Origin: Candidatus Baldrarchaeota archaeon
GTDB lineage: Archaea; Asgardarchaeota; Baldrarchaeia; Baldrarchaeales; DXJG01
Assembly: GCA_019056805.1 (NCBI GenBank)
Contig: DXJG01000007.1
Coordinates: 1,992-65,991, forward strand
Length of the DNA stretch: 64,000 nt
Reading direction: 5' to 3'
Below are positions 6,201-54,376 of this stretch, piece by piece. The notes under the pieces were generated by a model that searched no databases, was not told the origin of the DNA, and worked only from the letters and a program-made list of their open reading frames with translations. A program made the position numbers and the translations under genes. Each line of letters begins with the position of its first letter. The stretch's first letter is position 1.

Positions 6201-6710
6201 CTCTGTGTTTTCAGTCCAGTCTCTTATGGTTACCGTAAACTTAACACAAGTTGCTCCAATGTCAGTTGCTCTTACAGCTATTTCTTCACCGTTTATACTT
6301 ATGGTTGTTCGATCTGTGCCTATGTTGGTGACTGCATAAGTATCTAAAACGTTAAATGCATCATCACAAAGATGTATACTTAATGAATCAATTATGGCGC
6401 CGCCGTCGATGCTTAGTGACAGTTCTTGTAGTCCCCTTACACCGTCAAGTGTGACGTAAATTAATAAATCTACAGTTTCACTGTCTTTTGAACTATTTTG
6501 AAAAGTGATTTCAAGCCCGTTTTCAATTAATGTATAATTGAAATAGTCTAGTGGTTTTCCTTCAGCATAATAGTCTACCATTATTACGGGGCTTTCTCCT
6601 TCCTGTTTTGGTATCATTGCCGAACTTAAGTTAATACTCGAAAGAACTATTAGTACACAAAGTATCACTGAAAAAAGAGGCTTAAAACCTATTTTATTTA
6701 CCATTTTCAT
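258..6710 (-). CDS. Giant cell-surface protein (2150 aa), signal peptide plus C-terminal transmembrane anchor, aromatic-rich and probably N-glycosylated
   Basis: Uninterrupted 6.45-kb ORF. N-terminus MKMVNKIGFKPLFSVILCVLIVLSSINLSSA looks like a signal peptide; C-terminus has one hydrophobic helix (LMYLVIIAVAIIGVAIVIM) followed by RKRKR. Very rich in Y/W/T/N/E with many N-x-S/T sequons and internal repeats (e.g. YILENGTKIYV twice). Confidence 0.85.
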   Translation of the reverse strand: MKMVNKIGFKPLFSVILCVLIVLSSINLSSAMIPKQEGESPVIMVDYYAEGKPLDYFNYTLIENGLEITFQNSSKDSETVDLLIYVTLDGVRGLQELSLSIDGGAIIDSLSIHLCDDAFNVLDTYAVTNIGTDRTTISINGEEIAVRATDIGATCVKFTVTIRDWTENTEHHFRVEAGGAEYPPPEEGEEGEPNVYIFYNEELGVLAFFNASFIEGELFITFSNTSADSGTVEILIIAELRAIEFLTGFNASIDNGATIESVLIDFYNDELNPVEPYQSYDFGTPECSVPFDARDAIERARNASLNFVGFKIIIGNWLADTTYTLHIIPFFSELLYYETEDAIYVDPSVMNLPPEIRVWWRLYNETWGWNWTYRDISWEFGPKAHYDIFCYNTTTETWYLVTPDTWIELNAPVMINITIPKLLFEEGTELGTIDLSWNMWAVNISAYLSIYYDYSSNDWSTWTSIYNYSDPYGSTTGEFFTLNQSQTTLIETPDQYNFVITGQFNDLTPKGIYNVYLNIFDNESNYISTSSYYYWDSELSLYKEVAIGGPWDEVAVYFDMMYGGTYLAEILNTDYELIRSVGINQTFIIRLNITGISDADFRNASIVIRLPYSLRTYVNVTGWHEEYRVYHGGWVYNETLDTYVWDPNATIITREWVFGPYLMEQWVTIAKEINVTRVYWDETTGEYYEVETTDWASPNLLLFYNNTDGTFNYYLLYQYWNETLKEDEWGQYIDYVEGWKIEEVPSELRLYELISGTKTVEDNKIILEFEGKFIGNPGPNLWIDYYVYSSQWRIWPRDWEWIYENAHQLSVEKPVINVRIRDQEGATSGTWYFATNPGQWFIVEVEMEGGSQLVTDVDGIRVRFNCWNYYWSENETIWSNLEIIATINLRENTTEIIVYNQTNKEVYEYGTYEIWNETTGTMEEVEGWHWEHYSFNQTSGEWINMWLDWHHKDTVVNETYIIVNNYSAFATEDGKYLIQVNMSFTEYANDQRYSFSVNLLNWTYGPDYTEPWGEHILEDWAYSKVYTINNGSVEVYIPNPETRYYAETSNGKKYLILSKPYILINGEKLPLKEIKFWNGYEYEYRLLREEWDPTTYEYKRYYILENGTKIYVYEAYHAFIYNATIYDETTGETYNITTYMSSPWWSIFEEAYFIITLDGEIIWLADYNYCLNVEKIGRVPVEFGGYFTVINGTTWVNLTKGWIDWDYIAQEYYILLENGTKIYVRYDYDYMYMYYFERNGKRYYIEYPSAYYVGEYNGKSIIVPEWFKRSWYYTLVGEERVELPYEGVSDEYEWLSWWCLQQPKSEGGAVPEDDYALVNGSLYLIHYDYEGATTGYIIVDGVTYSITKGQGLYTKVSGIDCWDIEEIGFAIFIGNLTNQGSYDRESLIKLYVDYFTYDSTTESGNVTLFNGTLLDVSRHLRVVFFEVNVSGTIYYTVIPEPEYDWENNTYVLYLLNGSRIDLESLEDYEFIGIVTVELGGYEYPGPETFTWNGETYNTTVWINEYRSINLMYDYYRIYTVSGAWYDLIPINWLLHPEWWYTIPPRYYNDLYSYEYEFPIYNITVNGVNYTTNLYVEHIKVARLSWGYPVTWHLEELRWGDVSYRYEVWDVIVGSPEWGLWGYRKWTIDPTTGALDLDGDLSTTDDQFYVKRVYVGEFGWNETVNGLDVNIVYDPNPVIPGDELIVNAWMGTSTNTYWNRWNETYYWFYTNMTPVSPETMAIINETLWDTERNAPKSGYWDIARMARNMTWEDYLKKAEEEGWDWVKEEVTWTWLWFGFQQSYWVSTGENETFQSYHVDLRYEYAGIFIYNDTNDNLIMDEDEATHYFIPEAVGNVIFVTPGEAFGIYNETGMLTLPINESVEFGVSYLDINGTMFPFGRSYYAWYGEEIYGTDLRTFQERPVDASLEELSFKLHFYVENSTATNSTEARIKIDQHIGNWDLDLPTGIAVLENLSLSLNYYIYAETSGSWEVVSEDGTPITPDEIVEASRISLDTSGLKFAEVNMGDTYIWGGNLSMVCNVSTHTIPLSTFVATYTDYESETSVGGWTFQSTMYFLSVGFPKWDGYFVYEDPEVVVYSGKQKKTIVSSLAEFLAGWIPTIGKPGEEAPPPREIPLMYLVIIAVAIIGVAIVIMRKRKRAAMEKSLVKPSKQ

Positions 6711-7031: not shown

Positions 7032-9194
7032 ATGAATGAAATATTAATTTCAGCTGTTTTGATCCTTTTACCTAATATTTTAATAGCTTTGATTGTCCTT
7101 TTGATGAGATATACTCGTTTTAAAGAAATTGCATTGCGTACAGGAATAGCCTTCTCTGCGTTTTGGCTAATATATTGTATTGGCTCAAGTATAGTTTTCA
7201 ATTTGATCGGAGTTGAACCGAACTTAGTTTATTCTTCCCGAGATTTTTCAATATCAAACTTAAAGACTCTTGCAACTTATGTAGTATCTCTAGCAATATA
7301 CTCTCTCACTTTGACAATCACTTACCCGGTTTTCATGTTCCCATTTGTTTTCTTCCTTGCTCCTATAATAGCCGTTTTAATTCTACTTTACGCCGTTAGA
7401 GGAAGAGGAATAAAAGAAATAACTTTTTGGATCGATTTAAAACCCAAAAGATTGATGGGGTGGGATGAAGAAAAAGAGGTTTTGAAACTTTTAATAGCTC
7501 TTCTACCTGTTTCTCTATATTTCTTAACATCATTACTACGAATATTGAAATACGAGGAAGATCCGCTTTCGGTTGGTAGTACCTTGTTGGGCTGGGTACT
7601 TGAAATTTATATGCTTTTTCTTTTATCTTTCATAGTGGCGGTGAATCTTCTTTATACTTCTCGTGTTTATCACGGAAACAGGTTTGTAGGTGAAACTATT
7701 AGAAGAAATACCTTCAATAATCTCTTATCTATAAGTATTGTGCTTTCGTCCGTAAGTCTTATACTTTTTGTACAAATTTTCAAGGGAATCATCTACGTTT
7801 TCATATACTTCTCACTATATTACATTGCGATAACTATTATTTTCCTTTCATTCTTCAAAGTAATGGAACCAACTTCCGTGTATATCTTTGCTAAAATTCT
7901 AACTTTTATGAGAGATGAAAATAAATTCCAAAGAATATTTGAAAAAAGAACGCTTGTACTAGGCATTATAGTTGGTATAGTGGTTACTTTAGCTTCTCTT
8001 TTCTGCACATACGCTTTTATATCGGTTTATTGGAGCTACGTGAATATAGATCTAGATGCCCTTTTAGGTGAATGTTCTTTAGATAGCAGCCCCTCCCTGG
8101 AAATTTTGGAAATTTTAAACATACTTATTTCTTTAGGATCTTTACAAAGATTTTTTGAAATAGCAATTATAATGTTTCTTATCTATGCGCTCAGAAATAT
8201 GGTTAAAATAAAATTTTTCATAGCTGGCATATATGTAGGCATATTTAAGGTATTTGCTGACTATCCCCTTTTACAGCGCGCAACTAAAGCTTGGACTACA
8301 ACTGTATTTTCAAGTGCGAACATTGGTTTCGTCAACATTTTAGTTCCAAGGTTTGCCTATCTAGGATTGACAACTTCTTATCTGGGTTCATCTGTCTATC
8401 AATTTATAGTCATACCTATACTTCTCCTTAAACTTTTAGCAACACTCTTAGTTTTTACTGTTTTAGTTTACTTAAAATTTGGTAAACTTGTTCAGTTTAT
8501 CGATGTTGAAGCTGGACATCAAATAAAATATATATGTGAAGTTGAACCTGACTATATTACTCCTAACTCGTTGATAAAACTGAAAATAGCAAAAATATTT
8601 GAAGAAAAAATTCCAGAAGATCTTTTACAGATCGTAGAATTCTTTAAGACAAAAACATACACTTTTCAAGAATTAAAAGAAAAATTAGGCATGCCTGATG
8701 AAAAATTAAAGAAAATTCTCCGATATCTGCATGAAAATTACATTATTGACATTTACGACTGCGAATTTAAAATAGTTACACCAGCACCAGTGATAGAAGG
8801 AATATATATTGTGAATACAGACGGTATAGCTCTGTACAGTAAGTCATTTGGTGAAGTAAAAGTCGAACCTTTATTGATTTCAGGTATGCTTTCAGCAATA
8901 ACTAGCTTCGTTAAAGAAACAACAAGAAGTCAACAATATTTGCAAGCTATTGATCACGGTGATGTCGTTCTCATGATAGAATATGGAGATGGATTTTTCG
9001 TCACCCTTTTGGCGAACAGAGAAACCCCTGAAATTCGTATGAAATTAAGGGAATTTGTTAGGCGATTCCAAGAAAAATACGGTGAAATTCTCAAACGATG
9101 GAGTGGAGATCCCGGTGAATTTGAAAATGTTGAAAAATTAGTCAATGAAGTTTTTGAAATCACATCTACTAGTGAAGAAATAACCACTACCTAG
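7032..9194 (+). CDS. Polytopic membrane protein with C-terminal cytoplasmic domain (putative roadblock/longin-like alpha/beta domain)
   Basis: First ~500 aa contain many hydrophobic helices; C-terminal ~220 aa are hydrophilic with pattern GIYIVNTDGIALYSKSFG...LISGMLSAITSF...FFVTLLAN...KRWSGDPGEF, homologous to the C-terminus of the 48963..51935 protein. Confidence 0.8.
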   Translation: MNEILISAVLILLPNILIALIVLLMRYTRFKEIALRTGIAFSAFWLIYCIGSSIVFNLIGVEPNLVYSSRDFSISNLKTLATYVVSLAIYSLTLTITYPVFMFPFVFFLAPIIAVLILLYAVRGRGIKEITFWIDLKPKRLMGWDEEKEVLKLLIALLPVSLYFLTSLLRILKYEEDPLSVGSTLLGWVLEIYMLFLLSFIVAVNLLYTSRVYHGNRFVGETIRRNTFNNLLSISIVLSSVSLILFVQIFKGIIYVFIYFSLYYIAITIIFLSFFKVMEPTSVYIFAKILTFMRDENKFQRIFEKRTLVLGIIVGIVVTLASLFCTYAFISVYWSYVNIDLDALLGECSLDSSPSLEILEILNILISLGSLQRFFEIAIIMFLIYALRNMVKIKFFIAGIYVGIFKVFADYPLLQRATKAWTTTVFSSANIGFVNILVPRFAYLGLTTSYLGSSVYQFIVIPILLLKLLATLLVFTVLVYLKFGKLVQFIDVEAGHQIKYICEVEPDYITPNSLIKLKIAKIFEEKIPEDLLQIVEFFKTKTYTFQELKEKLGMPDEKLKKILRYLHENYIIDIYDCEFKIVTPAPVIEGIYIVNTDGIALYSKSFGEVKVEPLLISGMLSAITSFVKETTRSQQYLQAIDHGDVVLMIEYGDGFFVTLLANRETPEIRMKLREFVRRFQEKYGEILKRWSGDPGEFENVEKLVNEVFEITSTSEEITTT

Positions 9195-9333
9195 CTTAAA
9201 TCAACACATATTATTTTGTTAAGTTTTTGTAGAAATTTGGTGTCATCTTATTTCAAAAGATTTATAAGACATTTGAAGGATGTTGATTCCTCTCCTTTTG
9301 TTAAAAGGCGAGAAAATTTGGAGTTGAGGCATT

Positions 9334-10464
9334 TTGGGTTTTAAAGAATTAAATATTGGAGACAATGTTCTATCAGCAATTTACACGATGGGCTATGAAG
9401 AACCATCACCTATACAAAAAGAGACAATACCATTGATTTTATCTGGAAGAGACGTAATAGGACAGGCGAGGAGTGGAAGTGGAAAAACAGCGGCTTTCGG
9501 TATACCTTTAGTAGAAATGACAGACCTAGCGGATCATAATGTTCAAGCTTTAATACTTACACCAACAAGAGAACTGGCAGAGCAAGTATCGAGGGAAATA
9601 GCTAACATCGGAAGAAAAAGAAGAGTAAAAGTATATGCCATTTATGGTGGCGTACCCATTGGACCTCAAATGGAAAAATTACGGAGAGGAATACATATAC
9701 TTGTTGGGACTCCTGGACGTTTACTTGATCATTTACGGAGAAGGACATTAAATCTTCGAAATGTTAGAGTGGTTGTTTTAGATGAGGCTGATAGAATGCT
9801 TGATATGGGCTTTATAGACGATATTTCAACAATTCTTTTCCATGCAAAAAACAGAAAACAAACGTTATTATTTTCTGCGACTATGCCTTACGAGGTAATA
9901 GAATTATCAAGAAAGTATATGAAGAACCCTATAGCTGTAAAAATTTCTCGAGACGAGTTAATTGTTGAACATATAGACCAATATTATGTTGAGACAAGTC
10001 GAAAAAATAAGTTAGAAGTTTTAATGAGAATCTTAGATGAACATCATGGGAAGAAGATCATGGTTTTCTGTGCAACAAAGAGAAAGACAACGCATGTCGC
10101 TTGGAAACTGAGAAAATCAAGATACTCTACACTTTGTTTGAATGGAGATATGACTCAAGGTCAAAGAAACTGGTCAATGGCAGTCTTTAGAGAACCAGGT
10201 AGCAAAATACTTGTAGCGACCGACGTAGCTTCCAGAGGAATAGATGTACCCACGACAGATTTGGTGATAAACTTCGATATTCCAAGGAATTTGAAAGATT
10301 ATGTTCATAGAATAGGTCGAGCAGGAAGATTTGACAGAAGAGGAAAATCTATAACACTAATAACACAAGAAGATCACTCATTCTTAAGAAGAATACTTAG
10401 ATCTAACAAAATGGAAAAATACTATTTCAGCGGTAAACGTAAATTTGATAAACGTAGATTTTAA
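9334..10464 (+). CDS. DEAD-box ATP-dependent RNA helicase
   Basis: Motif I GQARSGSGKT, Ia PTRELA, II VLDEADRMLDMGF (DEAD), III SAT, VI HRIGRAGR. TTG start per ORF track. Confidence 0.93.
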   Translation: MGFKELNIGDNVLSAIYTMGYEEPSPIQKETIPLILSGRDVIGQARSGSGKTAAFGIPLVEMTDLADHNVQALILTPTRELAEQVSREIANIGRKRRVKVYAIYGGVPIGPQMEKLRRGIHILVGTPGRLLDHLRRRTLNLRNVRVVVLDEADRMLDMGFIDDISTILFHAKNRKQTLLFSATMPYEVIELSRKYMKNPIAVKISRDELIVEHIDQYYVETSRKNKLEVLMRILDEHHGKKIMVFCATKRKTTHVAWKLRKSRYSTLCLNGDMTQGQRNWSMAVFREPGSKILVATDVASRGIDVPTTDLVINFDIPRNLKDYVHRIGRAGRFDRRGKSITLITQEDHSFLRRILRSNKMEKYYFSGKRKFDKRRF

Positions 10465-10746
10465 ACACGTATTTTCGCTTAATTTTAGCCATGCGAAGGG
10501 TAGATCGTGAAGAACTATCCTTTGTATTTTAGCTAAACTTTATTTTATAATTTGGTGGAGATGACACATTTTTAATTTAAATGCAACCATATTTTGTCTT
10601 TGTGATTAAAAATGGGTAATTTGGTATTCTTAACATATTTGGTAAGACGAAAGAAATTGAAGATTCTGTAACTTTTACATTGTGATATTTAAGAAAGTCG
10701 CAATTTTATCAAAAAATTTAAGTATTATCGCATTAAAATTTTTATG

Positions 10747-10775
10747 CATCTCCAGATATTTAGTTCTTGGAGATG
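10747..10775. promoter_or_regulatory. Imperfect inverted repeat (CATCTCCA / TGGAGATG, ~13-nt spacer) ending about 6 nt before the GTG start of the 10782 gene
   Basis: Read directly from the sequence; possible operator or translation-modulating hairpin. Confidence 0.25.
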
Positions 10776-10781
10776 TGAGAC

Positions 10782-13700
10782 GTGTTTCACCCTGATTTTA
10801 ACAAGAAGGCTTCTCCAACAACTAAATTAATATCTATGCTTCTGCTTTTAGCTCTTCTCTTAACCTACTGCTACTATCCAGCGACATTGTTTACGAATAC
10901 AAACTATCCGCAAACTACCTCCCTACTAATTTATAGAGACAATGAAACCACTGATAGCTTGACAAAGGTATCTTACGATGACGAAAATTTACAAGAATGG
11001 TTAAGTTCACTTAGAAGCTTAGAGGTTCCAGCAGGATCTCCAATGGATATTTATCCCGTTAGGGAGAGCATAGCTGTTGATTTATGGCCGGGAATCTATT
11101 TTCCGGAGGATGTTGAAATTTATAAGCCTCTTATAGAGGATCTTCATGCTCAAGGAATAAAATATATGATTTATAGGAATTTTTACATGGTTACTGATGT
11201 AAACTACACTTACCTATGTGAGTATTATCCTGGTTTCAATGCATCGAATGCTGGTTTTATAGATTTAGATGGAAACCCGTATATAGTAGATTATGATCCC
11301 TACGGTACACCAATATTTAGAGCTTCAACAAATAGACCTTATTGGCAAAGTTTTCTCATAAATTCAACGAAATTAGCTATCGATGCTGGTGTAGATGCTG
11401 TTGTTTTTGATGTTGGATTTGGACATTATCCTCCAAATGAGTTAAATTTTGATCCAGATAGCATTAAAGATTTTAGAGAATACCTAGCAGAAAAATATAC
11501 TTCAGAAGAATTGGCTTCAAAATTTAATATTTCTGACATTTCTACATTCGATTTTGGGCAGTATCTTAGAGATCTAGGATATAATGCTAGTAGTTTAAGG
11601 GAAGCTTTAACGCAAGGAACATCATTGGGATACTATGCTGATTTGTTATGGTCGGAGTGGTGTGAATTTCATCTTAAAGTTTTGGTGGAGTTTTATAAGA
11701 GACTTTATACCGAGGTAAAAGAATATGCTCAAAGTAAAGGACGAGATTTCTATGTTTTCTCCAATATTTATCATGGTCTTGATCCCCAGTACAATATACT
11801 CTATTTGATTAATTATGTGGATGGTATCTATGCAGAAATTTTCTTTGATGATTTACAGTATCCAAATAGAACTCCAGCAACAGTTTATAAGGTAGCTTAT
11901 AGTTTAGGGAAACATTATATCCCTATGACTTCTCCATCCAACGATTCGGAACTATATCCATTATATATTGCAGAGCTTTTTGCATGTGGCAGCTGGACGG
12001 GTGGAGCAGGAAACTATACTCCATATTTCCTTTTTGTTAACTCGCATCCTGAACTATTCAGTAAGGAACAGGACGGTGAAATAGGACTTGTTTACTCTTT
12101 AGCTTCAAGTGAAAACTATAGTTCATTTGAGGGTGCCTTTTACCTTCTCTCTGATACCCAGCGTAGTTTTGATGTTATTGTTTTTGGAGATAATAAGTGG
12201 TTTAATGAAAGCTTGACATTAAATGACTTGTTAAAGTATAGAGCAATTTTACTACCTAATACTGGTTATCTTACAGATGAACAAGTTGAATTGCTTCTGA
12301 ACTATGCTGAACAAGGTGGTATTCTAATAGGCATTGGAAGTGTTGGAACACGAAATGAAACCGGGGAAATTGTCAACTCAGAGACTCGAACAACGTTTAT
12401 CAGCCTTTTTAATGGTAGCATAGTTTCTTATGGAAGTGGAACAGTTATTTCATGGACCAGTGATATAGCTTTACAGTACTTATTGCAGAGAAATACAACA
12501 CTTTTAGAAGAATTTGAAAATAGATTAAGTGAAGTGTTTTCTCCCGAAATCATAACAAGCTTTACCCACAATACCACTATATTTCAATACTGGGATCCTG
12601 AATCTAATGCTATGATCTTTCATTTCTTAAATCGTGAATATGACTCCAAAAACGATGTAATAACACCTCAACACGATGTGAGCTTTAAGTTTACTTTAAG
12701 ACCTGAATTGGACGGTCTTCCTCTTGAAATAAGATTTTATTCACCGAATGACTATTTCGAAGGAATAGAGTTGACTTACAGCTCAGATCCTAATGGATAT
12801 GTGGAAGTAACAATTCCGAAAGTACATATATGGGGTATTTTGCGTGTGGAAGCTAAGAAAAAAGCAGTACAAGAAGATTTAGTAATTAACAGTCCAACCG
12901 TGCTTAAGGATCAAGTTATAGTTTTGAACGGTAACCTATTAGTTAACTCAAAGTTGACATTGGAGAATGTTATTTTAAAGATGAATAGTTCCCTTGACAG
13001 GGTGTTTCGAATAGAAGTTTATGAAGGAGGAGAACTTGTTATCAAAGACTCTGTCATTACTGCGTATGATCCAAAGTATCACTATTATGTTAAGGTGAAT
13101 AAGGGCAGTCGGTTCTATATGGAGAATAGTGAGTTAAGCCATGCTGGTGTTTGGGGACCTATGTATGCTGGAGGGCTGTGGATAAACACGGATGATGTCA
13201 TAATCTTAAACTGTACAATACATAGTAATTATGACTATGGAATACATGTATATAATGCTTCATACGTCGAGATAATAAACTGTAAAATTTACGGCAACAA
13301 TATAGGAATATACTTGCTCAATTCATCTTTCGTAACCATCTCTAAATGTAACATTTACGATAATTCAATTGGTATCTACGAAAAGGGAAGCTACTATTCT
13401 ACAATCAAACACAGTCATATCTCAAATAATTTATACTGGGGAATAACAATTTGGGACTCTCTATTCCCATTAATATCTGATAGTACCATTCATGATAGTG
13501 TCCATGATGGAATTATCATTTGGTACTCGTTTTTCGCAAAAATTTACAACTGCAAAGCTTACAGTAATGAAAATGGTTTTAACATACGATACACGCCTTT
13601 AGTGACAGTTTCAAGTAGCGAAGTGTATAACAATGAGGAGGCAGGCTTGTTTTTCTTCCATGTTGAGCTTCTGTATGGTCATCCGTTGGCAATTCTTGAT

Positions 13701-15104
13701 TCTCTTGGCACTATAGTTGCTAACAGTTTTTACAATAACACATATGGCATATACATGTTGGAAAGTGAAAAAACTAAGATTGAAGCTTGCAATATACTTG
13801 ATAACACGTGGGGAATATATGTTGAAGGAACTACTCAATGCACTTTCATTTTCCGTTCAAACTTCATTGATAACACCGATCACATTTATGTTGATGAAAA
13901 GGCTCAAGGAAAAATTCAATTTGACAACATAACAATTGGAAACTACTGGGATGACCACAGTGGAGAAGATGCTGATGGTGATGGTATTATTGATACACCT
14001 TATACTATTAACTCGGTAGATAAAGACTATAAGCCGCTAGCTAATCCAGTTACTATCGTAAAAATAGAAGATATATATGGGCCTATGATCACGGACATTC
14101 AAGTCGTGAAAGAAGAGGGAAATGAAAATTACAATTTAACAATATCTGTTAATGTCACTGATGATTCTTGGTTAAGTTGGGTTTTAATGAACGGAACAAT
14201 ACATAATTTGCCGGGTGGAGAAAACTATCCTTTGATGCGTATAATGGTATATTTCTACGATCCCTTTGCTACTATCTTAGGCTATGATAGGTCAAACTTC
14301 AATCTTCTTCCATCAGAAGGATATCCTCTCAAAACATGTACAGCTTCAACTCAGTTCACTTTTCCTCTTAGCTATAAGCCTCATTTCAAGATTTTTGCTG
14401 TGGATACCTATGGGAACTGGGCTGAAAATGACTCTACAACTCCTCATATAACTGGTATATTTTGGGATCCAAGTAGTCCTGAATATGATGAAGAGGTAAC
14501 TGTGTTTGTTCATGTATTTGATCAAAGCAGGATATCTGAATGTTTACTAAGTTACTTTAATGGAACAGAGTGGAATAACGTTTCAATGATATATAATGAG
14601 GAAACAAATGCAATGGTTGGAAGCATTCCAAAACAACCATATGGAGTTACAGTAGAATTCAAGGTAATTGTTAAAGATACTATGAACAATATAGCTGTAA
14701 GTGCAACTTATTCTTACACTGTTAAAGATACTACTCCGCCAATATTGAGAATAATTCAGCCAAGTGGCGGAGAAACAATTTCTAATGATGTTAATGTTAC
14801 TTGGGAGTCCTATGATGAAGGTTCGGGGTTAAAAGAATTCAAAATTTATTTAAATGGAACATTAAAAGCTACTTTGCCCCCTACAACATCCTGTTATCTT
14901 CTATCTAACTTAACACCAGGTTCTTACAATGTTACAGTTGAAGCTGTGGATAATGCTGGCAACCGTGCAACTGCATCAATAGTTTTCAAGTATGTCTCTG
15001 AAGAAGGTGGATTACCTAACTCTCTCATACTCATGGGAGGAACAATAGCCGGTGTTGTAATTATAGTTACAGTGTTTTTAATGAGAAAGAAACTAAAAGA
15101 TTGA
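10782..15104 (+). CDS. Large surface-anchored protein (1440 aa) with parallel beta-helix (PbH1/NosD-like) repeats and Ig-like domains
   Basis: N-terminal hydrophobic segment; central run of repeats of the type IINCKIYGNNIGIYLLNSSFVTISKCNIYDNSIGIY typical of right-handed beta-helix proteins; Ig-like region near the C-terminus; C-terminal TM anchor LILMGGTIAGVVIIVTVFLMRKKLKD. N-terminal ~600 aa may be a glycoside-hydrolase-like domain (weak). Confidence 0.85.
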   Translation: MFHPDFNKKASPTTKLISMLLLLALLLTYCYYPATLFTNTNYPQTTSLLIYRDNETTDSLTKVSYDDENLQEWLSSLRSLEVPAGSPMDIYPVRESIAVDLWPGIYFPEDVEIYKPLIEDLHAQGIKYMIYRNFYMVTDVNYTYLCEYYPGFNASNAGFIDLDGNPYIVDYDPYGTPIFRASTNRPYWQSFLINSTKLAIDAGVDAVVFDVGFGHYPPNELNFDPDSIKDFREYLAEKYTSEELASKFNISDISTFDFGQYLRDLGYNASSLREALTQGTSLGYYADLLWSEWCEFHLKVLVEFYKRLYTEVKEYAQSKGRDFYVFSNIYHGLDPQYNILYLINYVDGIYAEIFFDDLQYPNRTPATVYKVAYSLGKHYIPMTSPSNDSELYPLYIAELFACGSWTGGAGNYTPYFLFVNSHPELFSKEQDGEIGLVYSLASSENYSSFEGAFYLLSDTQRSFDVIVFGDNKWFNESLTLNDLLKYRAILLPNTGYLTDEQVELLLNYAEQGGILIGIGSVGTRNETGEIVNSETRTTFISLFNGSIVSYGSGTVISWTSDIALQYLLQRNTTLLEEFENRLSEVFSPEIITSFTHNTTIFQYWDPESNAMIFHFLNREYDSKNDVITPQHDVSFKFTLRPELDGLPLEIRFYSPNDYFEGIELTYSSDPNGYVEVTIPKVHIWGILRVEAKKKAVQEDLVINSPTVLKDQVIVLNGNLLVNSKLTLENVILKMNSSLDRVFRIEVYEGGELVIKDSVITAYDPKYHYYVKVNKGSRFYMENSELSHAGVWGPMYAGGLWINTDDVIILNCTIHSNYDYGIHVYNASYVEIINCKIYGNNIGIYLLNSSFVTISKCNIYDNSIGIYEKGSYYSTIKHSHISNNLYWGITIWDSLFPLISDSTIHDSVHDGIIIWYSFFAKIYNCKAYSNENGFNIRYTPLVTVSSSEVYNNEEAGLFFFHVELLYGHPLAILDSLGTIVANSFYNNTYGIYMLESEKTKIEACNILDNTWGIYVEGTTQCTFIFRSNFIDNTDHIYVDEKAQGKIQFDNITIGNYWDDHSGEDADGDGIIDTPYTINSVDKDYKPLANPVTIVKIEDIYGPMITDIQVVKEEGNENYNLTISVNVTDDSWLSWVLMNGTIHNLPGGENYPLMRIMVYFYDPFATILGYDRSNFNLLPSEGYPLKTCTASTQFTFPLSYKPHFKIFAVDTYGNWAENDSTTPHITGIFWDPSSPEYDEEVTVFVHVFDQSRISECLLSYFNGTEWNNVSMIYNEETNAMVGSIPKQPYGVTVEFKVIVKDTMNNIAVSATYSYTVKDTTPPILRIIQPSGGETISNDVNVTWESYDEGSGLKEFKIYLNGTLKATLPPTTSCYLLSNLTPGSYNVTVEAVDNAGNRATASIVFKYVSEEGGLPNSLILMGGTIAGVVIIVTVFLMRKKLKD

Positions 15105-15333: not shown

Positions 15334-16560
15334 TTGCAGTTTGGAGCTTTCTTTGGTATTTGGCTGATTTTCTTAATATTTATATTTATGCTAGCTGCTG
15401 AAGAAAGTCAAAGGAGAAAAGAAACTTTTCAGAAAATATATTCATGGTTAAAACAGAAATCTAAAAAGATATATTATGAAAAAGGCGGCTTTTTGAAAAG
15501 ACCTAGAATTATTGCAGAATTGAAACCAGAAATGGAATTGGAACGAGTTGAAGTTACAACATTTACTGTTCACCACGGGTATTATACAGGTACACATTAC
15601 GCTTCACATGCAAGAACTTATCTTAGAATCTTGGGTACGAGTGAGGAAGGTACTTTTGTAAACATCACTATAAGAGATGAAGGTCTTTTTGATAAACTTG
15701 CTATAGGGCTAGGACTTACAAAAGATATAGATTCAGGAGACCCCATATTTGATCAAACACATAGAATTAAAAGTGGAACACCTGAAATCGCCCTTAAACT
15801 CCTAAAGGATAAACAATTTAGAGATTATGTATCAATGATTCGTGATTTAAGGAAGTTTGAAATTAGAGGAGGAAAACATTTACATTTTATAGTTGAGTGT
15901 AATTATGACGTTTCATCTGCTGTGAATGCTATTTTAGCTATGGAAAGAACTGCAGAAGTTTTAGCGCCAGAGATTGAAAGAAAACCAGTAAAGGTTGAAA
16001 AAGCAAGACCCGTAACCCCGAAAGTAGAGCCTCGCAGAGCCGTAAGTTCCGAGGTAACGTTGAAATTGAAGAAAGAGTTTGAAAAATTGTCAATTTCTGT
16101 TTCTAAATTAGAATTTAAACCTTCAGAAGAAAACTTCACTAGGGTGATCATTACACCTTTACTAGGCGAATTCGATTACGTGCAATATGAAATCACTGAA
16201 AAATTGAAGGTAAGAGCTTTGGATAATCTTGAGAAACCTGCAAGTAAAACAATTACGATTCAGATATACCCCAAAGATATGAAAACAACCTCAACTCAAA
16301 AACCTACCTCTATTGAGGAAATCAAGACATTATTTGATATTAGGTGTGAGGATCAAGAAGTTTTAAGAAGAATTTCCGAAGCATACATACTTTTTGAAGT
16401 ATTAAGCGAGATTAAAGAATTGTCTAACTTCAATGTAAAACTGCAAGGCCAAACAATGGAAATATACTTAGAATGTGGCTTAAATCCAGAGAATATTAGG
16501 AGAGCTTATGAAGTAATCAGAGAAGCTGCATGGTGGACAAAATTCTATATACTAATTTAA
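15334..16560 (+). CDS. Uncharacterised membrane-anchored protein, paralog family member 1
   Basis: N-terminal TM helix; about 50-60 percent identical by eye to the 16723..17955 product, with shared blocks RVIITPLLGEFDYVQYEI and EEIKTLFDIRCEDQEVLRRISEAYILF. Confidence 0.75.
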   Translation: MQFGAFFGIWLIFLIFIFMLAAEESQRRKETFQKIYSWLKQKSKKIYYEKGGFLKRPRIIAELKPEMELERVEVTTFTVHHGYYTGTHYASHARTYLRILGTSEEGTFVNITIRDEGLFDKLAIGLGLTKDIDSGDPIFDQTHRIKSGTPEIALKLLKDKQFRDYVSMIRDLRKFEIRGGKHLHFIVECNYDVSSAVNAILAMERTAEVLAPEIERKPVKVEKARPVTPKVEPRRAVSSEVTLKLKKEFEKLSISVSKLEFKPSEENFTRVIITPLLGEFDYVQYEITEKLKVRALDNLEKPASKTITIQIYPKDMKTTSTQKPTSIEEIKTLFDIRCEDQEVLRRISEAYILFEVLSEIKELSNFNVKLQGQTMEIYLECGLNPENIRRAYEVIREAAWWTKFYILI

Positions 16561-16722: not shown

Positions 16723-17955
16723 TTGTACTCTTTATGGTTTATATGCTTGTGGTTTGCATGTTCAACGTTGGTAATTATATTAGCTATTTGGTTTGAAAAA
16801 ATAAGAAAAGCAAGAATAACAGAAATCTTTCAGGAAATTTTCTTTTGGTTAAAAGAGAAATCTGAAAGAATACGTTATGAAAATCATAAAAACCCTAGAA
16901 TTACAGCTGAGTTAAAACCAGAATGGCAATTAGATCAGGTTGAAGTTACAACGTTTATTGATAAATATGAACACTATTACGACTACTATATGTTACGTGC
17001 ATCTGAAAGATTTAATCTTAGGATTTTAGGTGTAGGTGAGGGGAAACATTTTGTAAGTCTTGCTATAAAAGATAAAGTCCCTTTTGATAGAAGTGTTTTA
17101 GGATCAGGGTTTGCAGAATATGTAAAATCTGGAGATCCAGTATTTGATCATTGGCATATCATTAGGAGTAAAACACCTCAAGCCGCTCTCAAACTTTTAA
17201 AAGACGATAAATTTAGAAGCTACATCAGTAATATACACAAATTAAGAATTTTCAAAATTGAGGGAGATGGAACTCTAAGTTTTACTGTTGAATGTAACTA
17301 TGATCCAATATCTGCTAAAAATGCCATTTTGGCTATGAAAAGAGTATTAGAAGTTCTATCACCAAAAACTAAGGAAAAAACTGCCGTTAGTGAAAGGGTT
17401 AAACCCGCTGTTTTAAAAGCTGAACCTCAGAAAATTATAGATCCCGAATTACTTTTAAACTTAAGAAAAGAATTTGAAAAATTATCGACCCATGTTTCTA
17501 AGTTAGAGTTTAAACCCTTGGAGGAAAATTTCTCTAGAGTGATCATTACTCCTTTACTAGGCGAATTCGATTACGTGCAATATGAAATTGCTGAAAAATT
17601 GAAAGTAGAAGCAATAGACGACCTTAAGAAAACTGTAGAAAAACCCATTACAATTGAAATACGTCCTAAAGAAGTAACGTTATCATTAGGTCAAAAAATA
17701 GCTTTTATTGAGGAAATCAAGACATTATTTGATATTAGGTGTGAGGATCAAGAAGTTTTAAGAAGAATTTCCGAAGCATACATACTTTTTGATTCTTTGA
17801 GCAAAATCAAAGAATTGTCTATCTTCAGCATAAAGTTGCAAGATTCAACGTTGAAAATATGTTTAGAATGTAGTGTCGATCCTGAAAACATCAGAAAAGC
17901 TTATGAAGCAGTTAAAGAAGCTGTCAATCTGGTTAAATTCCACCTATTAATCTAG
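16723..17955 (+). CDS. Uncharacterised membrane-anchored protein, paralog family member 2
   Basis: Same architecture and conserved blocks as 15334..16560; tandem arrangement. Confidence 0.75.
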   Translation: MYSLWFICLWFACSTLVIILAIWFEKIRKARITEIFQEIFFWLKEKSERIRYENHKNPRITAELKPEWQLDQVEVTTFIDKYEHYYDYYMLRASERFNLRILGVGEGKHFVSLAIKDKVPFDRSVLGSGFAEYVKSGDPVFDHWHIIRSKTPQAALKLLKDDKFRSYISNIHKLRIFKIEGDGTLSFTVECNYDPISAKNAILAMKRVLEVLSPKTKEKTAVSERVKPAVLKAEPQKIIDPELLLNLRKEFEKLSTHVSKLEFKPLEENFSRVIITPLLGEFDYVQYEIAEKLKVEAIDDLKKTVEKPITIEIRPKEVTLSLGQKIAFIEEIKTLFDIRCEDQEVLRRISEAYILFDSLSKIKELSIFSIKLQDSTLKICLECSVDPENIRKAYEAVKEAVNLVKFHLLI

Positions 17956-19071: not shown

Positions 19072-19392
19072 GTGAACAGTACTCAGCATGGAAATAGGCA
19101 GAGCTCTATAAGGATTCAAGTGAAGTTCTTGGCGTCGTTAAAACATATTTTGGGAGTTAAAAATGTTGATTTGGAAATTTCTCAGCCAATGAAGTTGATA
19201 GAAGTTTTAAATTTACTTGTAGAAAAATATGGAGAAAAATTCAGGGAAGCTGTGTTTGATGAAGAAGGAAAAGTTAGAAATGAGCTTCTTATCTTGGTGA
19301 ATGATGCGGAAATCTCTGTGCTTAACGGATTAGATACTAAAATATCTGATGGAGATACAATAACTCTACTACCTACAGTGCATGGAGGATAA
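19072..19392 (+). CDS. MoaD/ThiS-family ubiquitin-like small protein (SAMP-like) with C-terminal Gly-Gly
   Basis: 106 aa ending in ...TITLLPTVHGG; size and diglycine terminus are typical of the beta-grasp sulfur-carrier/modifier family. GTG start preceded by GGAGG. Confidence 0.75.
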   Translation: MNSTQHGNRQSSIRIQVKFLASLKHILGVKNVDLEISQPMKLIEVLNLLVEKYGEKFREAVFDEEGKVRNELLILVNDAEISVLNGLDTKISDGDTITLLPTVHGG

Positions 19393-22906: not shown

Positions 22907-23614
22907 GTGAATATTAGTTTTAGGAAGATTGAAGATGTTCTACAGAACTTATCAGAGGTTGAAGAGGTCTTTAAAGAAATTAAAAGCGTAATTAAAGAAC
23001 TGGTCAACGTTAAAACGGAAAATGAACAATTAAAAGGCGAAATAGTCAATTTAAAAGCCGAGTTAAGAATATTGAAAGAGAAATCACATAAACTTGAGAA
23101 AGAAAACACGGAGTTAAAAAACACTTTAGAAACAAGAGAAAATGAAATAAACCAATTAAATGAAGCAATTTCCTCTTTAACAAGTGAAAATAAGAAGCTT
23201 AAAGAGGATTTAGAGATTGCTGAGAAAAAATTCTCAGAATTAGATGAGTATAAAGAAAGAACTGAGGAAGAAAACAAAAAATTGAAAAACGAATTAGATA
23301 AGATTTCTGAACAGTTTGAGAAGATATCTCAAATGTATAGGGAGATTGCTGGTGAAAGAGAAAGAGTTGAAGACATAAAAGAACTTTTAACAATATATGT
23401 AACGTTGCTTGAGACTGTTTTTGCAGGTATGCCTCATGCAAAAGTACTGTGGTTGTTACATGGGGTTCCAAAAATGAAAAGAAGTGAAATAACGAAAACA
23501 GCGGGATTTAAGCCTGCAATCATACTTAAAAGCATACATGACTTGGAAAGAGCAAAACTAGTTGAATATGAGAGAGAAAAAGATGAAGTACGCATACTAA
23601 GAAGACTATACTAA
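22907..23614 (+). CDS. Coiled-coil protein with C-terminal winged-helix-like domain
   Basis: About 150 aa of heptad-rich E/K/L sequence (ENEQLKGEIVNLKAELRILKEKSHKLEKENTELKN...) followed by a ~70-aa globular tail (KVLWLLHGVPKMKRSEITKTAGFKPAIILKSIHDLERAKLVEY). Confidence 0.6.
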   Translation: MNISFRKIEDVLQNLSEVEEVFKEIKSVIKELVNVKTENEQLKGEIVNLKAELRILKEKSHKLEKENTELKNTLETRENEINQLNEAISSLTSENKKLKEDLEIAEKKFSELDEYKERTEEENKKLKNELDKISEQFEKISQMYREIAGERERVEDIKELLTIYVTLLETVFAGMPHAKVLWLLHGVPKMKRSEITKTAGFKPAIILKSIHDLERAKLVEYEREKDEVRILRRLY

Positions 23615-23743: not shown

Positions 23744-23971
23744 TTAAATTTCAAATGTACCCGGTACATCAGGATGTGGTGGGATTCTAGGTTTTCCCGG
23801 TTTCCCAGGTTTTATCGGTGGTGTTGGTCTCTTAATTCTAGCAAGGTCTAATTCAAACTTTGTTGAACATTGAGCACAGTAGATTTCACCGTTTACTGTA
23901 ACTTTGAAAAGTTCACTTCCACATTTAAAGCATTTAGCCCATTCCAACAAACTCACCAACAAACATAACAT
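23744..23971 (-). CDS. Small zinc-ribbon protein with Pro-rich tail
   Basis: CFKCGS...CAQCS pairs of cysteines; C-terminal PPIKPGKPGKPRIPPHPDVPG. Directly downstream of the ChlI/ChlD-like gene on the same strand. Confidence 0.55.
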   Translation of the reverse strand: MLCLLVSLLEWAKCFKCGSELFKVTVNGEIYCAQCSTKFELDLARIKRPTPPIKPGKPGKPRIPPHPDVPGTFEI

Positions 23972-24058
23972 GCACCGACATAAAAATCTATCTGAAAAAA
24001 CTAAAGTAAAAACAAAGTAATTGTAAAATCAATATGTGAAAACTTGGATTATATGGTT

Positions 24059-26398
24059 TTAGAGGCCTTTATCTAACATATTAAGGATAGAAGTTCTAAC
24101 ATTTACCAGAGTTCTCTCATTTATGTCACATTCAAAATAAGTTCCATTAGCTGCCTGAACAATTTTCCAAGCAAACATAGAAGAAATATTTTTGAATATT
24201 CCCCCACCAGCGACAGGATTAATTAATATGAATGGTATTTGCTCTCTTCTAATAATTTTAGCAACTTCTATAGCGTCTTTAAGAGCTGTCACCGACTTAC
24301 CCCATCTAAGTTTTCTTAAGGGTACATTTGCAGCTGCATCAGAAATAACTATTATAGCTGGTATAACCTCCCTATCTCTAATCTTCTCTTCCTTTGCAAC
24401 TTCTAAAGCTCTAAGCATTCCCAAGGCAAGAGGCGTATACCCACTTGCTTTCAATCTCATAATTAGATCGATAATTTTCCTGAAATTTGACGTTGGACGT
24501 TGAAGAACATAAGCAGAATCTCCTCTAAAGACAATGAGTCCAACTTTATCTCTATGTCTATAAGCTTCCCCGTAAAGAGATATTACAGCATTGCCTACAG
24601 CGTCTTGCCAAGCGGCCATAGACCCGCTCATGTCTAAAACAAGGATAAGGGATAAGGGAGCCTTATATACCCTGACTTTCTCTCTAATATCTCGAGGTAA
24701 AACCTTGATTGCTAATTGTCCATGAGAACTGTTTTTCATAAGTATTCCCTGAGTTACTGCTGCGGATCTAATTGTGGCAGGCCAATGAATATCTACGTGA
24801 TCTAATTGTCGAGGGACTGTGTAACTAATACATTTGCCTTTATGTCTAGTTGTTAATGTTAAAACACGTTTTCCCACAGCTTTTCTAGTAAGTTGGACAT
24901 CTTGCTTACTGGGCTTTATTCTAACAATTTTCCTGAAAAATCCCTTAATTTTTTCAGGTAATGGTAGAGAACCATCAAATAAACTGGAATCCAAATAAGA
25001 TCTGGAATATATAGTTAAAGGAAGTATTTCGATTCCTTTAGTCTTCTTTTTCTTCCCTCTTTTTATTTTAATAAAGTCTACTATTTTTATTAAATGAGAT
25101 TTCACTTTACTAAAAGGTTTTTTCCGATATTTAGAGTAAACAATCTCGTTAATAACATCGTCTTTGATAGGACCCTTTTTACTTTTAAGTGAAAAAGGTT
25201 TTCCTTTCTTTTCAGATTTTCCCTCCATGAGTATAAATCTTTTCTTTTTCTTAGTTTCGTTATTTTTCAATTTTTTTGGATTTACTTTTTTACTTTTGGT
25301 TTTCCCCTTAATTTCTTCAATAGGTTTAATTTCGGTTTTTATTTCTTTTTTAACGGTCTGTAAGGCATTTTTAAAGGCTTCATCTATTTCTCTTGGCGTT
25401 GCAGGTTCTTCTCGACCCTTATTTCGTGTTCTGTGACTTAATGCAAGTCTAGCAGCTATCCTGATATCTTCAGGAATAACTTCAGTTCTTTCATGAAAAG
25501 CTGCAATAGCTTTAGCTGCTTCACAAATTACAATATCTGGTCTATGACCATCAACGTTTAAAGTAAGTGAAATTTTCGCGGCAACATACATTAACCATTC
25601 CGAAATCTTGACTTTTGGAAGAATTTCTCTAGCTCGTATAATTTTTTCTCTAAGTTCTTTTTGAAATGGTTCCCATTTTTTCCTAAATTCTTTAGGATTT
25701 TCTTTAAACTCTAAATTACGCTTGATAATTTCAACTCTTTCATGAATATCCTTAATGCTTTCAATTTTTACATGTAAAGCAAATCTATCGAGGAGTTGTG
25801 GTCTTAATGAACCTTCTTCTGGGTTCATTGTACCAACTAAAATGAATTTTGAGGGATGTGACACTGATATGCCTTCACGTTCAACAATGTTGACTCCCAT
25901 TGCAGCAGCATCAAGCAAATCGTCCACTAAATGATCAGGTAGCAAATTTACTTCATCAACATAAAGAATGTTTTGATTTGCTTCTGCAAGAATACCTGGT
26001 TCTAAAGCTTTAACTCCCTCCTTTATAGCTCTCTCAATGTCCAAGGAACCTACTAGACGATCCTCTGTTGCACCTAAAGGCAATGTCACGACCTTCATCT
26101 TTCTTTTGACGACAGGTAGTTTGTCACCTGATTCGTATCTTTTTCTACATTCTTCACACATAGCAGAGGGATCGTGAGGATTACAGTCAAAGGGACAATC
26201 TGCAACAACCTCAACTTCTGGAAGTAAGTCTGCAAGTGCCCTAACAGCTGTACTTTTTCCAGAACCCTTTTCGCCAGAAATTAGCACACCACCAATGGCT
26301 GGATTAATAGCATTTAGAATCAAAGCTAGTTTAAGTTCCTCTTGACCGACAATAGCTACGAAAGGGAAAACAAAGTCCTCAAACAAGCTACACGTCAC
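24059..26398 (-). CDS. ChlI/ChlD-family AAA+ ATPase fused to a C-terminal von Willebrand factor A domain (Mg-chelatase-like)
   Basis: N-terminus [50 protein letters not shown] matches ChlI/BchI including Walker A; Cys-rich insert CPFDCNPHD...CEEC; Lys-rich linker; C-terminal VWA with MIDAS motif [12 protein letters not shown] start. Confidence 0.9.
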
Positions 26399-26656
26399 CT
26401 GTCATATAGCTCGTTATACTGTTAGCTGATTATGATCATGACAAAACACATTATATTTCTTTCCTAGTATTAGAGTTTCCAATCAAAACCTTGACTACTA
26501 TTTTGTTTTCAGATTTACATATATTTCTAAAATTATTGAAATGTTTACTCTCAAGAAGAAAAACTGTGTTAATGTAAAAGATTAAGGGTGTATAATGGGT
26601 GGATAAGTATTCTCATAATCAGTTTGTTAGTACTAGAATTCGGTGCAGTGTTGTAC

Positions 26657-27439
26657 TTAAAGCAGTTTCAGAATCATTGCTATAATGAATGGAGAATTCG
26701 CACAAAAATGTATGATACACCCTGGCAGTATGGATTTTGTTCTAAATCTTATTTCCCCAAGGAAAATGCCTGTAATAGATGCACCTAAGATAGTTGTCCA
26801 AAGTTTGCTGTAAACCTTGAATATGTTTTCGTTAAAATAGATTAGTATAATTGGAGTTGGGAGATGCCATAAACCGAAAGAAATCCCTGTGAAAATCGAT
26901 GCAACAGATATTTGGAAACCATGTAAATTTAATGTTTCAGAGTGGAAAGTTTCTTGGCTCCTTTTGAATAAATATCCTCTAAAAAGAAGTTCTTCAAACA
27001 CGGGGCCAAATGTAAGAGTGAAAATAGCTGTAATAAGTAGTCTTGTTAAGGTTACTTCTCCCTTTATTTCTGTCGGAAAGAAAAACTCAATAGTTAAAGC
27101 TACAAGGTAAAAGAAAAAGATGAAGATAAAAATCGCTTTCCATTGCTTTGAGGAGACAGTTTTAGTAGTTAGTCCCAAATCCTCTGCATTATAACTAAAG
27201 AAAAATTGGCTGTTTATCCAGATCCAAAATAATAAGAGAATTACTAGAAAAACGCCAACCTTGGCTATTGATTTTGCATATGTAGTTGTAGCGAAGTAAC
27301 TAGAAGCATTAAAGGCTATCAAAATTAGTAGTGTTTCGCAAATTAAAATCAATGTGGCAAAATTTTTCGACGTTGTGTCATGATTCTGACCTTTAGGGCT
27401 GGATGTTACCTTTCCCGCTTTACTGTCTTCGAGAGACAT
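26657..27439 (-). CDS. CPBP-family intramembrane metalloprotease (CAAX protease / Abi-like)
   Basis: Multi-TM protein with the family signatures EELLFRG (motif 1), FGLWH (motif 2) and a C-terminal HFxxN-type motif (IHFCAN). Confidence 0.8.
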   Translation of the reverse strand: MSLEDSKAGKVTSSPKGQNHDTTSKNFATLILICETLLILIAFNASSYFATTTYAKSIAKVGVFLVILLLFWIWINSQFFFSYNAEDLGLTTKTVSSKQWKAIFIFIFFFYLVALTIEFFFPTEIKGEVTLTRLLITAIFTLTFGPVFEELLFRGYLFKRSQETFHSETLNLHGFQISVASIFTGISFGLWHLPTPIILIYFNENIFKVYSKLWTTILGASITGIFLGEIRFRTKSILPGCIIHFCANSPFIIAMILKLL

Positions 27440-54246: not shown

Positions 54247-54376
54247 TTTAAACAACCTTTAATGCTATTTCAAAACTTGAATTTAATTTATTTACTTCTA
54301 AATAGAGTATATACTTTTCTATTAGAAACATATTATTACAATTAAAAATGTAGACTTCATTTGCAGAATTTCAACT

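Follow-up and report, generated by a model that had tools for sequence, protein, structure and literature searches.

A 64-kb window of the genome of a Candidatus Baldrarchaeota archaeon (the whole 64,000-nt stretch of contig DXJG01000007.1 analyzed here) encodes a 779-aa protein in which a ChlI-like AAA+ module and a ChlD-like von Willebrand factor A (VWA) domain are joined in one chain. Its ATPase motifs and its MIDAS (metal ion-dependent adhesion site) are intact, it belongs to a large archaeal clade, there is no CobN in the gene neighborhoods of 83 relatives inspected, and its gene is independent of the zinc-ribbon gene that lies next to it. We conclude that the protein is probably a ChlI-type motor that acts on a client other than the large chelatase subunits, CobN or ChlH. 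To the fuller reading, that the clade as a whole constitutes a large-subunit-independent AAA+-MIDAS machine working on a non-tetrapyrrole client, and represents a pre-chelatase or parallel use of the motor and not a stray chelatase subunit, we assign a probability of about 0.45.

Domain organization and motif integrity

The gene (24059..26398, minus strand, GTG start) is identified as a ChlI-ChlD ('ChlID'-type) AAA+-VWA fusion by its open reading frame (ORF), by Pfam and NCBIfam domains, by matches to proteins of known structure and by >8000 homologues in the protein database. The Pfam domains present are AAA_lid_2, AAA_5, Mg_chelatase and VWA_2, with the matches to AAA_5, and also to bpMoxR, being weak. 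Residues 8-342 (25373..26377, minus strand) align with cyanobacterial ChlI (8osf, 6l8d) with zero gaps and an E-value of ~1e-112. This module has Walker A (aa 42-50), Walker B (LYVDEVN, aa 145-151) and an AAA lid, and the sequences GTMNPEEG and RPQLLDRF mark its sensor-1 and Arg-finger region (aa 189-206). The VWA (integrin-I) domain at the C-terminus (24062..24649, minus strand) has a full MIDAS and is of the ChlD/BchD type; it matches VWA_2 (7.6e-12), aa 584-728 align with the corresponding domain of BchD (2x31; E = 2.9e-14), and the fold is predicted with confidence by AlphaFold2 (AF2). It is preceded by a conserved segment (aa ~529-580; 24659..24814, minus strand) that corresponds to the precomputed Pfam family PF26791 ('AAPxQ'), assigned to this protein and to every relative listed, and apparent as conserved alignment columns. 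The AF2 model has an overall predicted local distance difference test score (pLDDT) of 58, a confidence too low for fold searches, and was used for the VWA fold and for linker disorder alone. The combination of a ChlI-like AAA+ module with a ChlD-like VWA/MIDAS domain (DMSGSM) in a single 779-aa chain, as proposed in a first-pass annotation of this DNA, is therefore borne out by Pfam, NCBIfam and structure-based alignments.

In an alignment of 120 relatives, Walker A, Walker B and the GTMNPEEG...RPQLLDRF region are invariant or nearly so, as are the MIDAS residues D589-x-S591-x-S593, T655 and D687. Such conservation of both catalytic and MIDAS residues argues for a functional ATPase under selection, with predicted activity, and not for a relic. 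Four cysteines, C68-x3-C72-x8-C81-x2-C84 (CPFDC...CEEC; 26147..26197, minus strand), are retained in 113-120 of the 120 clade members and form a candidate metal-binding loop. They had been taken for a Cys-rich insert, but the alignment with 8osf and 6l8d places them in a pre-existing ChlI loop of unchanged length, the ChlI counterpart being NDPFNSDPSDPDLMSDEVR, and the identical Cys4 pattern is present in fusion proteins encoded beside cobN in Haloferax (GCPYGCPPDDPARQCESC) and Ralstonia (GCAFNCAPDAPLAECEAC). The loop is thus a four-Cys version of a ChlI feature and is common to both types of fusion.

Scores against chelatase family models

The top-scoring NCBIfam model is TIGR02442, which describes ChlI-ChlD fusions as 'putative cobaltochelatase' (E = 3.9e-194), followed by the BchI-ChlI (1e-132) and BchD-ChlD (1e-108) models, and the protein falls below the curated cut-off of all three. 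With TIGR02442 (cut-off 779.45 bits) it scores 646.7 bits, and six other members of the clade score 606-638. With TIGR02030, the ChlI/BchI equivalog, it scores 442.3 bits against a cut-off of 466.95 (clade members, 403-432) and, on this score, is not classed as a Mg-chelatase I subunit proper. With TIGR02031, the BchD-ChlD equivalog, the values are 364.4 and 499.55 bits. Of the two CobN-linked fusions used as controls, Ralstonia passes the TIGR02442 cut-off with 839 bits and Haloferax, with 696 bits, fails. Because a fusion protein encoded adjacent to CobN also scores below the cut-off, this threshold cannot decide CobN dependence and was dropped as a criterion; genomic context and linker chemistry were therefore relied on instead.

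An archaeal clade with a divergent Asgard member

Beyond near-identical copies, the closest homologues are ~46% identical and come mostly from Bathyarchaeia. In databases they carry names such as 'Mg-chelatase subunit ChlI/ChlD' or 'VWA domain-containing protein'. When species-representative genomes were scanned with the clade-specific C-terminal half of the protein, 423 relatives were obtained. The best 80 of the 423 were examined and are nearly all from Bathyarchaeia, the others being from Hadarchaeum and from Baldr-, Odin- and Promethearchaeota. A neighbor-joining tree places the window protein on a long branch beside the Baldr/Odin-type members. Judged by sequence, it is therefore a divergent Asgard representative of a clade of archaeal proteins that is large and extends over Bathyarchaeia, Hadarchaeia and Asgard lineages. 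The CDC48 protein encoded in the window falls into a 90% identity cluster with Baldr- and Odinarchaeota proteins.

The window also encodes two eukaryote-like signature proteins, a small GTPase of the Gtr1/RagA family (PF04670, 3.7e-27; 53329-54255, minus strand) and a Urm1/ThiS-like ubiquitin-related modifier (19072-19392, plus strand). Like the CDC48 cluster, these two proteins fit an Asgard origin of the DNA. One locus from Bathyarchaeia (L022) carries two full-length copies of the fusion gene in tandem (8504-10801 and 10990-13380).

A long basic linker joins the two halves

In members of the clade, a linker of ~170-200 residues connects the AAA+ lid to the pre-VWA segment. In the window protein (aa ~356-528; 24815..25333, minus strand) this linker is Lys-rich, strongly basic and, from AF2 (pLDDT <50 and no secondary structure over aa 356-528), predicted to be disordered. 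In ChlD, the AAA+ and VWA parts are joined by an acidic or Pro-rich linker. By that standard the linker of the window protein is unlike that of a ChlD/BchD-type medium subunit, since the net charge over aa 335-535 is +38, with 29% K+R and 6% P. The median K+R content of the linker in the 120-relative alignment is 25%, and two further clade members that are not linked to CobN have net charges of +29 (P0007) and +18 (P0016). Acidic linkers were measured in two proteins, the CobN-linked Haloferax (-62) and Ralstonia (-8) fusions, and the polybasic linker sets the archaeal clade apart from both of these controls.

The DNA that encodes the linker contains an A_AAA_AAA heptamer in phase at codon 375 (25271..25277, minus strand), with a stop codon in the -1 frame three codons further on. 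A -1 frameshift at this site would result in a short ChlI-like product in addition to the full-length chain, as proposed for fs-chlD genes. There is published precedent in chlD-type genes, archaeal ones included, where a conserved frameshift signal generates two products, one short and one long (Kuznetsov, Milenkin and Antonov 2022, PMC9227772), and in one relative from Promethearchaeota (L081), the two halves are separate ORFs, one for the AAA+ module (8421-9548) and one for the linker and VWA domain (9545-10819), that overlap by 4 nt. In a stretch that is both AT-rich and Lys-rich, however, heptamers of this kind should arise by chance. Across 66 genes of the family the correct phase shows no excess of slippery heptamers (182 versus 300 and 153), their position is not conserved, and nine of the genes have no in-phase heptamer. 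With no family-level support from these 66 genes, programmed frameshifting in the clade was rejected; it is improbable for the window gene, and the heptamer at codon 375 was judged to have arisen by chance.

Neighborhoods without CobN

No CobN is present among the four largest ORFs of the window, tblastn with Haloferax CobN gives no match within the 64 kb, and no tetrapyrrole-pathway Pfam family was found among the 34 window ORFs scanned. The first-pass annotation, in reporting no CobN/ChlH-like or tetrapyrrole gene in the vicinity, was therefore correct. The search was extended to 94 further loci (1.4 Mb in all) and to 83 non-redundant homologue loci that take in as much as 10 kb to either side of the fusion gene, and CobN was found neither in the 83 neighborhoods nor in the 94 loci. 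Large ORFs that might have encoded CobN, in the window and at these loci, are beta-helix/NosD, Ig-like, clostripain and SMC proteins. In the two positive controls, CobN was recovered. On Haloferax mediterranei pHME322 the fusion gene divergently adjoins cobN within a cob cluster. In Ralstonia, where it is located on a megaplasmid, it comes after a gap of the size of cobN in which tblastn confirms CobN. The method used therefore detects CobN where it is present.

No neighbor is universal to the clade, and those that recur do so within particular subclades only. A DUF523 (PF04463) protein is encoded directly downstream of the fusion gene at 18 loci from one Bathyarchaeia subclade. In the same position at 10 loci (L009, L010, L011, L017, L023, L024, L026, L027, L028 and L065), all from one monophyletic Bathyarchaeia subclade, there is a gene for a 123-133-aa protein with four cysteines (CxxCG...CSxKCE) followed by hydrophobic/transmembrane segments and without a Pfam match. 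PurE/PurM also recur as neighbors, and a short transmembrane peptide does so in Asgard-type members. In Bathyarchaeia, recurrent neighbors form a housekeeping block with RIO kinase, aIF1A, aIF2-beta, KH and MBL-fold proteins; these were identified by visual inspection, and Pfam identified the DUF523, BtuR/CobO and DUF885 neighbors. The BtuR/CobO-type protein, a CobA/CobO/BtuR corrinoid adenosyltransferase (PF02572, 9e-46; L047 15087-15599), is encoded ~4.7 kb from the fusion gene at 13 Bathyarchaeia loci. ORFs of ~360 aa near the fusion gene that had the appearance of a separate ChlI paralogue are PurM, grouped by an artefact of single-linkage clustering.

A cultured archaeon provides a further case without a large subunit. 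On Haloterrigena turkmenica pHTUR01 (L094, 6867-10041), separate genes for a ChlD-like VWA protein and a ChlI-like AAA protein are surrounded by genes whose annotation is mycofactocin biosynthesis or mycofactocin-coupled, and there is no cobN in the 8 kb around them.

A probable client other than a large chelatase subunit

Homology with the motors of class I chelatases, and with the wider AAA+/VWA motor-adaptor-effector systems, suggests that the 779-aa protein most likely assembles into an oligomeric, ATP-hydrolysing ring of the ChlI type. The tethered VWA domain would then grip a client protein at an acidic residue through its MIDAS, and ATP-driven movement transmitted through this domain would remodel the client or insert a metal or cofactor. 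The client is probably not CobN or ChlH because there is no adjacent CobN, because the linker is basic where those of the CobN-linked fusions are acidic, and because genomes that lack the large subunit and the corresponding pathways have been published. We infer independence of CobN at the level of whole genomes as well, and published reports suggest that many carriers lack the large subunit. The chaperone-like remodelling role put forward in the first-pass annotation is, in this respect, the most reasonable reading of a stand-alone fusion with no large subunit nearby; the pairing with a zinc-ribbon protein that went with it does not stand (see below). Within the fuller reading to which we give a probability of about 0.45, an acidic protein complex, a metalloenzyme under maturation or a nucleic-acid-associated particle are candidate non-tetrapyrrole clients, which could be engaged through the polybasic tether and the MIDAS.

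The alternative is a conventional chelatase role, with the large subunit encoded elsewhere in the genome, and several observations weigh on its side. The CobN search in this metagenome-assembled genome covers 64 kb of a 108-kb contig, and a cobN or chlH gene may be encoded elsewhere. The best NCBIfam match is to a model named for a cobaltochelatase and, at 647 bits, the protein is close to the 696 bits of the CobN-linked Haloferax fusion; sequence alone does not separate the two, and a sub-cut-off score shared with that control is no ground for exclusion. The Cys4 loop is common to the CobN-linked fusions, and the corrinoid adenosyltransferase within ~5 kb of the fusion gene at the 13 Bathyarchaeia loci is the sole corrinoid-related hint in these neighborhoods, although it is located inside the housekeeping synteny block. 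Against a conventional role, CobN is adjacent in both controls and absent from the window and from all 83 homologue neighborhoods, the window has no tetrapyrrole genes, and the linker has the opposite charge. Published genes of the chlI/chlD type also occur where cobalamin genes or a large subunit are lacking. Pan et al. 2020 (PMC7110647) report 'many magnesium chelatase genes' (chlI/chlD-like) in Bathyarchaeota and state that most of the metagenome-assembled genomes that have them lack cobalamin-biosynthesis genes; they consider that chlorophyll synthesis is possible. A search of that paper gives no occurrence of cobN, and the passages inspected make no mention of a large subunit. Kuznetsov et al. 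(PMC9227772) document genomes with a chlD-type fusion, or with chlI plus chlD, that lack both the large subunit and any pathway to B12 or chlorophyll, and describe the role of such proteins without the large subunit as 'unexplored'. Taken with the context and the linker, these reports leave the conventional role unlikely.

Neither the sequence family nor its fused architecture nor its orphan situation is, therefore, new to the record. What this locus appears to add is modest: the Asgard member, the basic-linker signature, the CobN-free context over 83 loci and the location in a variable islet (see below) were not found described in the literature searched. The practical consequence concerns annotation. 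Where chlI and chlD genes occur without a large subunit, 'magnesium chelatase' or 'cobaltochelatase' is the routine annotation, and such genes have served as arguments that uncultured archaea synthesize chlorophyll or B12. To judge from this locus, its 83 relatives and the two CobN-linked controls, such annotations are unsafe for this clade, and genomic context and linker charge offer simple discriminators. If the clade does work without CobN, identification of the client would show that, in the archaea most closely related to eukaryotes, a very old motor has been put to a new use.

The adjacent zinc-ribbon gene belongs to the constant flank

A gene for a 75-aa zinc-ribbon-like protein with a Pro-rich tail (23744..23971, minus strand) begins 87 nt downstream of the fusion gene. 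The zinc-ribbon assignment rests on a CxxC...CxxC pattern, with Pfam Zn_ribbon matches below threshold. The gene is lineage-restricted; among 5.8 billion proteins, relatives are found in its own cluster and in one other, with 79% identity. Differences between the copies concentrate in third codon positions, and the four cysteines and a C-terminal PPHPD[VI]PGTFEI are conserved, as expected from the sequence of a real gene.

The first-pass annotation had correctly described this ORF, its Pro-rich tail and its orientation, and had paired its product with the fusion protein. A functional pair, in which the MIDAS might bind the Pro-rich/acidic C-terminal tail, is consistent with the shared strand and the 87-nt gap, with retention of the arrangement in two near-identical contigs (L001, L092) and with the acidic end of the tail (...GTFEI), which could in principle be a MIDAS ligand. 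The zinc-ribbon gene is, however, present without the fusion gene in syntenic relatives (L086-L091), where other genes precede it. Directly upstream of its start there is a 22-nt element, AGATAGATTTTTATGTCGGTGC (23972..23993, minus strand), that is kept in the window, in L089 and in L086. The sequence beyond this element is unrelated in the three lineages, whichever gene precedes, and the element, which includes an A/T-rich box, is a candidate for the zinc-ribbon gene's own promoter. Nor is the zinc ribbon conserved as a partner beside other members of the family: of the 73 loci with a readable downstream region, the window alone has it. The CxxCG...CSxKCE proteins with transmembrane segments encoded downstream of the fusion gene at the 10 Bathyarchaeia loci were considered as possible homologues and rejected (hhalign probability 1%). 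Given the synteny, the separate upstream element and the lack of recurrence at other loci, the adjacency is circumstantial, and a functional pair is very improbable. The fusion gene is the variable element here and the zinc-ribbon gene is part of the constant flank.

A 235-aa coiled-coil protein with a C-terminal TFIIE-alpha-like winged helix is encoded tail to tail with the zinc-ribbon gene (22907-23614, plus strand). Because the two genes co-occur in all three lineages examined, this protein is a better candidate than the fusion protein for the partner of the zinc ribbon.

The fusion gene occupies a variable islet

Comparison by blastn with L089 and L086, together with gene tables, defines a variable islet (24023..27315) that contains the fusion gene and most of its upstream neighbor, a gene for a 260-aa Rce1-like/CPBP intramembrane protease (26657..27439, minus strand; PF02517, 6e-18). 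In L089-L091, the flanks on both sides are 81-89% identical to the window at the DNA level, the zinc-ribbon gene and the convergent 235-aa coiled-coil/winged-helix gene are kept, and 24023-27315 is exchanged for ~1.2 kb with a GNAT acetyltransferase gene (L089 8778-9951). In the more distant L086 and L087, the Rce1-like gene is broken, and genes for a 265-aa membrane protein and a DUF433 protein replace the fusion gene (L086 ~4174-5823). The fusion gene is, therefore, an accessory gene in a variable spot of this Asgard (Baldr/Odin-like) genome.

The islet is a hotspot of gene flux, bounded by the zinc-ribbon gene and a conserved gene for a 136-aa protein, with three alternative cargos in close relatives. 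By analogy with MoxR-vWA conflict systems, a CPBP/Abi-type protease together with an AAA+-VWA protein might form a mobile or defence cassette, a possibility to which the alternative cargos, one of them including an antitoxin-like DUF433 protein, and the adjoining CPBP-family protease lend some weight. In a PADLOC analysis, the fusion protein had only a generic AAA+ match (7e-7), the Rce1-like, 136-aa and zinc-ribbon proteins had none, and the 235-aa protein had matches of the coiled-coil type only, so that membership in known defence systems finds no support there. In addition, the fusion gene of Bathyarchaeia is located in stable housekeeping synteny, the base composition of the islet is like that of its surroundings, no integrase was found among the scanned ORFs, and no tRNA or flanking repeats were seen. 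A similar protease ORF is near the fusion gene at only 2 of the 83 loci, and the linkage was judged to be a coincidence. A defence cassette is, on balance, scarcely probable.

Other features of the window

Very large NosD/right-handed beta-helix proteins of surface type are encoded less than 10 kb away from the fusion gene, both in the window (10782-15104, plus strand) and in two Bathyarchaeia loci (L065 2316-5714 and L067 16517-19303), probably by coincidence. Four sizeable ORFs of the window have no Pfam match at all: one of 2150 aa (258-6710, minus strand), one of 720 aa (7032-9194, plus strand) and two adjacent ORFs of ~410 aa (15334-16560 and 16723-17955, both plus strand). Rfam and tRNA scans of the window found nothing.

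Comparison with known chelatases and related motors

The closest known counterparts are the ChlID-type cobaltochelatase fusions (TIGR02442), exemplified by the Haloferax HVO_B0050/pHME322 homologue and by Ralstonia. These have the Cys4 loop and the same order of parts as the window protein, namely ChlI-like AAA+ module, linker, pre-VWA segment and VWA/MIDAS domain. They differ in that their genes adjoin cobN in cob clusters, which is not the case at the 83 loci of the clade, and in that their linkers are acidic whereas that of the window protein is strongly basic. Relative to the Mg-chelatase subunits ChlI/BchI and ChlD/BchD (8osf, 6l8d, 1g8p, 2x31), the N-terminal half resembles ChlI, the VWA domain resembles that of BchD, and the order of domains is that of ChlD. 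Mg-chelatase, however, consists of two separate subunits that work with the porphyrin-binding ChlH, whereas the window has a single chain and no gene for ChlH or for the chlorophyll pathway.

The genes described by Kuznetsov et al. (PMC9227772) and by Pan et al. (PMC7110647) resemble the window gene in being of the chlI/chlD type, in lacking a large subunit and/or a B12 or chlorophyll pathway, and in their occurrence in anaerobes. The Bathyarchaeota genes of Pan et al. very likely belong to the same clade as the window protein. The 'stage 1' examples of Kuznetsov et al. carry a conserved frameshift signal, of which the window clade gives no evidence.

How such a motor might work on its client is suggested by a cryo-electron microscopy preprint on CobSTN (bioRxiv 10.64898/2026.07.21.739949), in which the AAA+ ring engages a 'shaft' segment ahead of the VWA domain of the adaptor, the large subunit binds near the MIDAS, and the whole is described as a motor-adaptor-effector scheme with NorQD, CoxDE, CbbQO and RavA-ViaA as non-tetrapyrrole analogues. 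NorQ-NorD, CoxD-CoxE, CbbQ-CbbO and RavA-ViaA follow the same logic, an ATPase ring with a VWA/MIDAS adaptor that acts on a client metalloenzyme or complex. In most of them the ATPase is of the MoxR type and the VWA protein is a separate chain, and the pair is usually encoded beside its client, whereas the window protein has an ATPase of the ChlI type and a fused VWA domain, and no client is encoded nearby. With these differences, the four pairs provide the best functional analogy for a role of the fusion protein that is independent of CobN.

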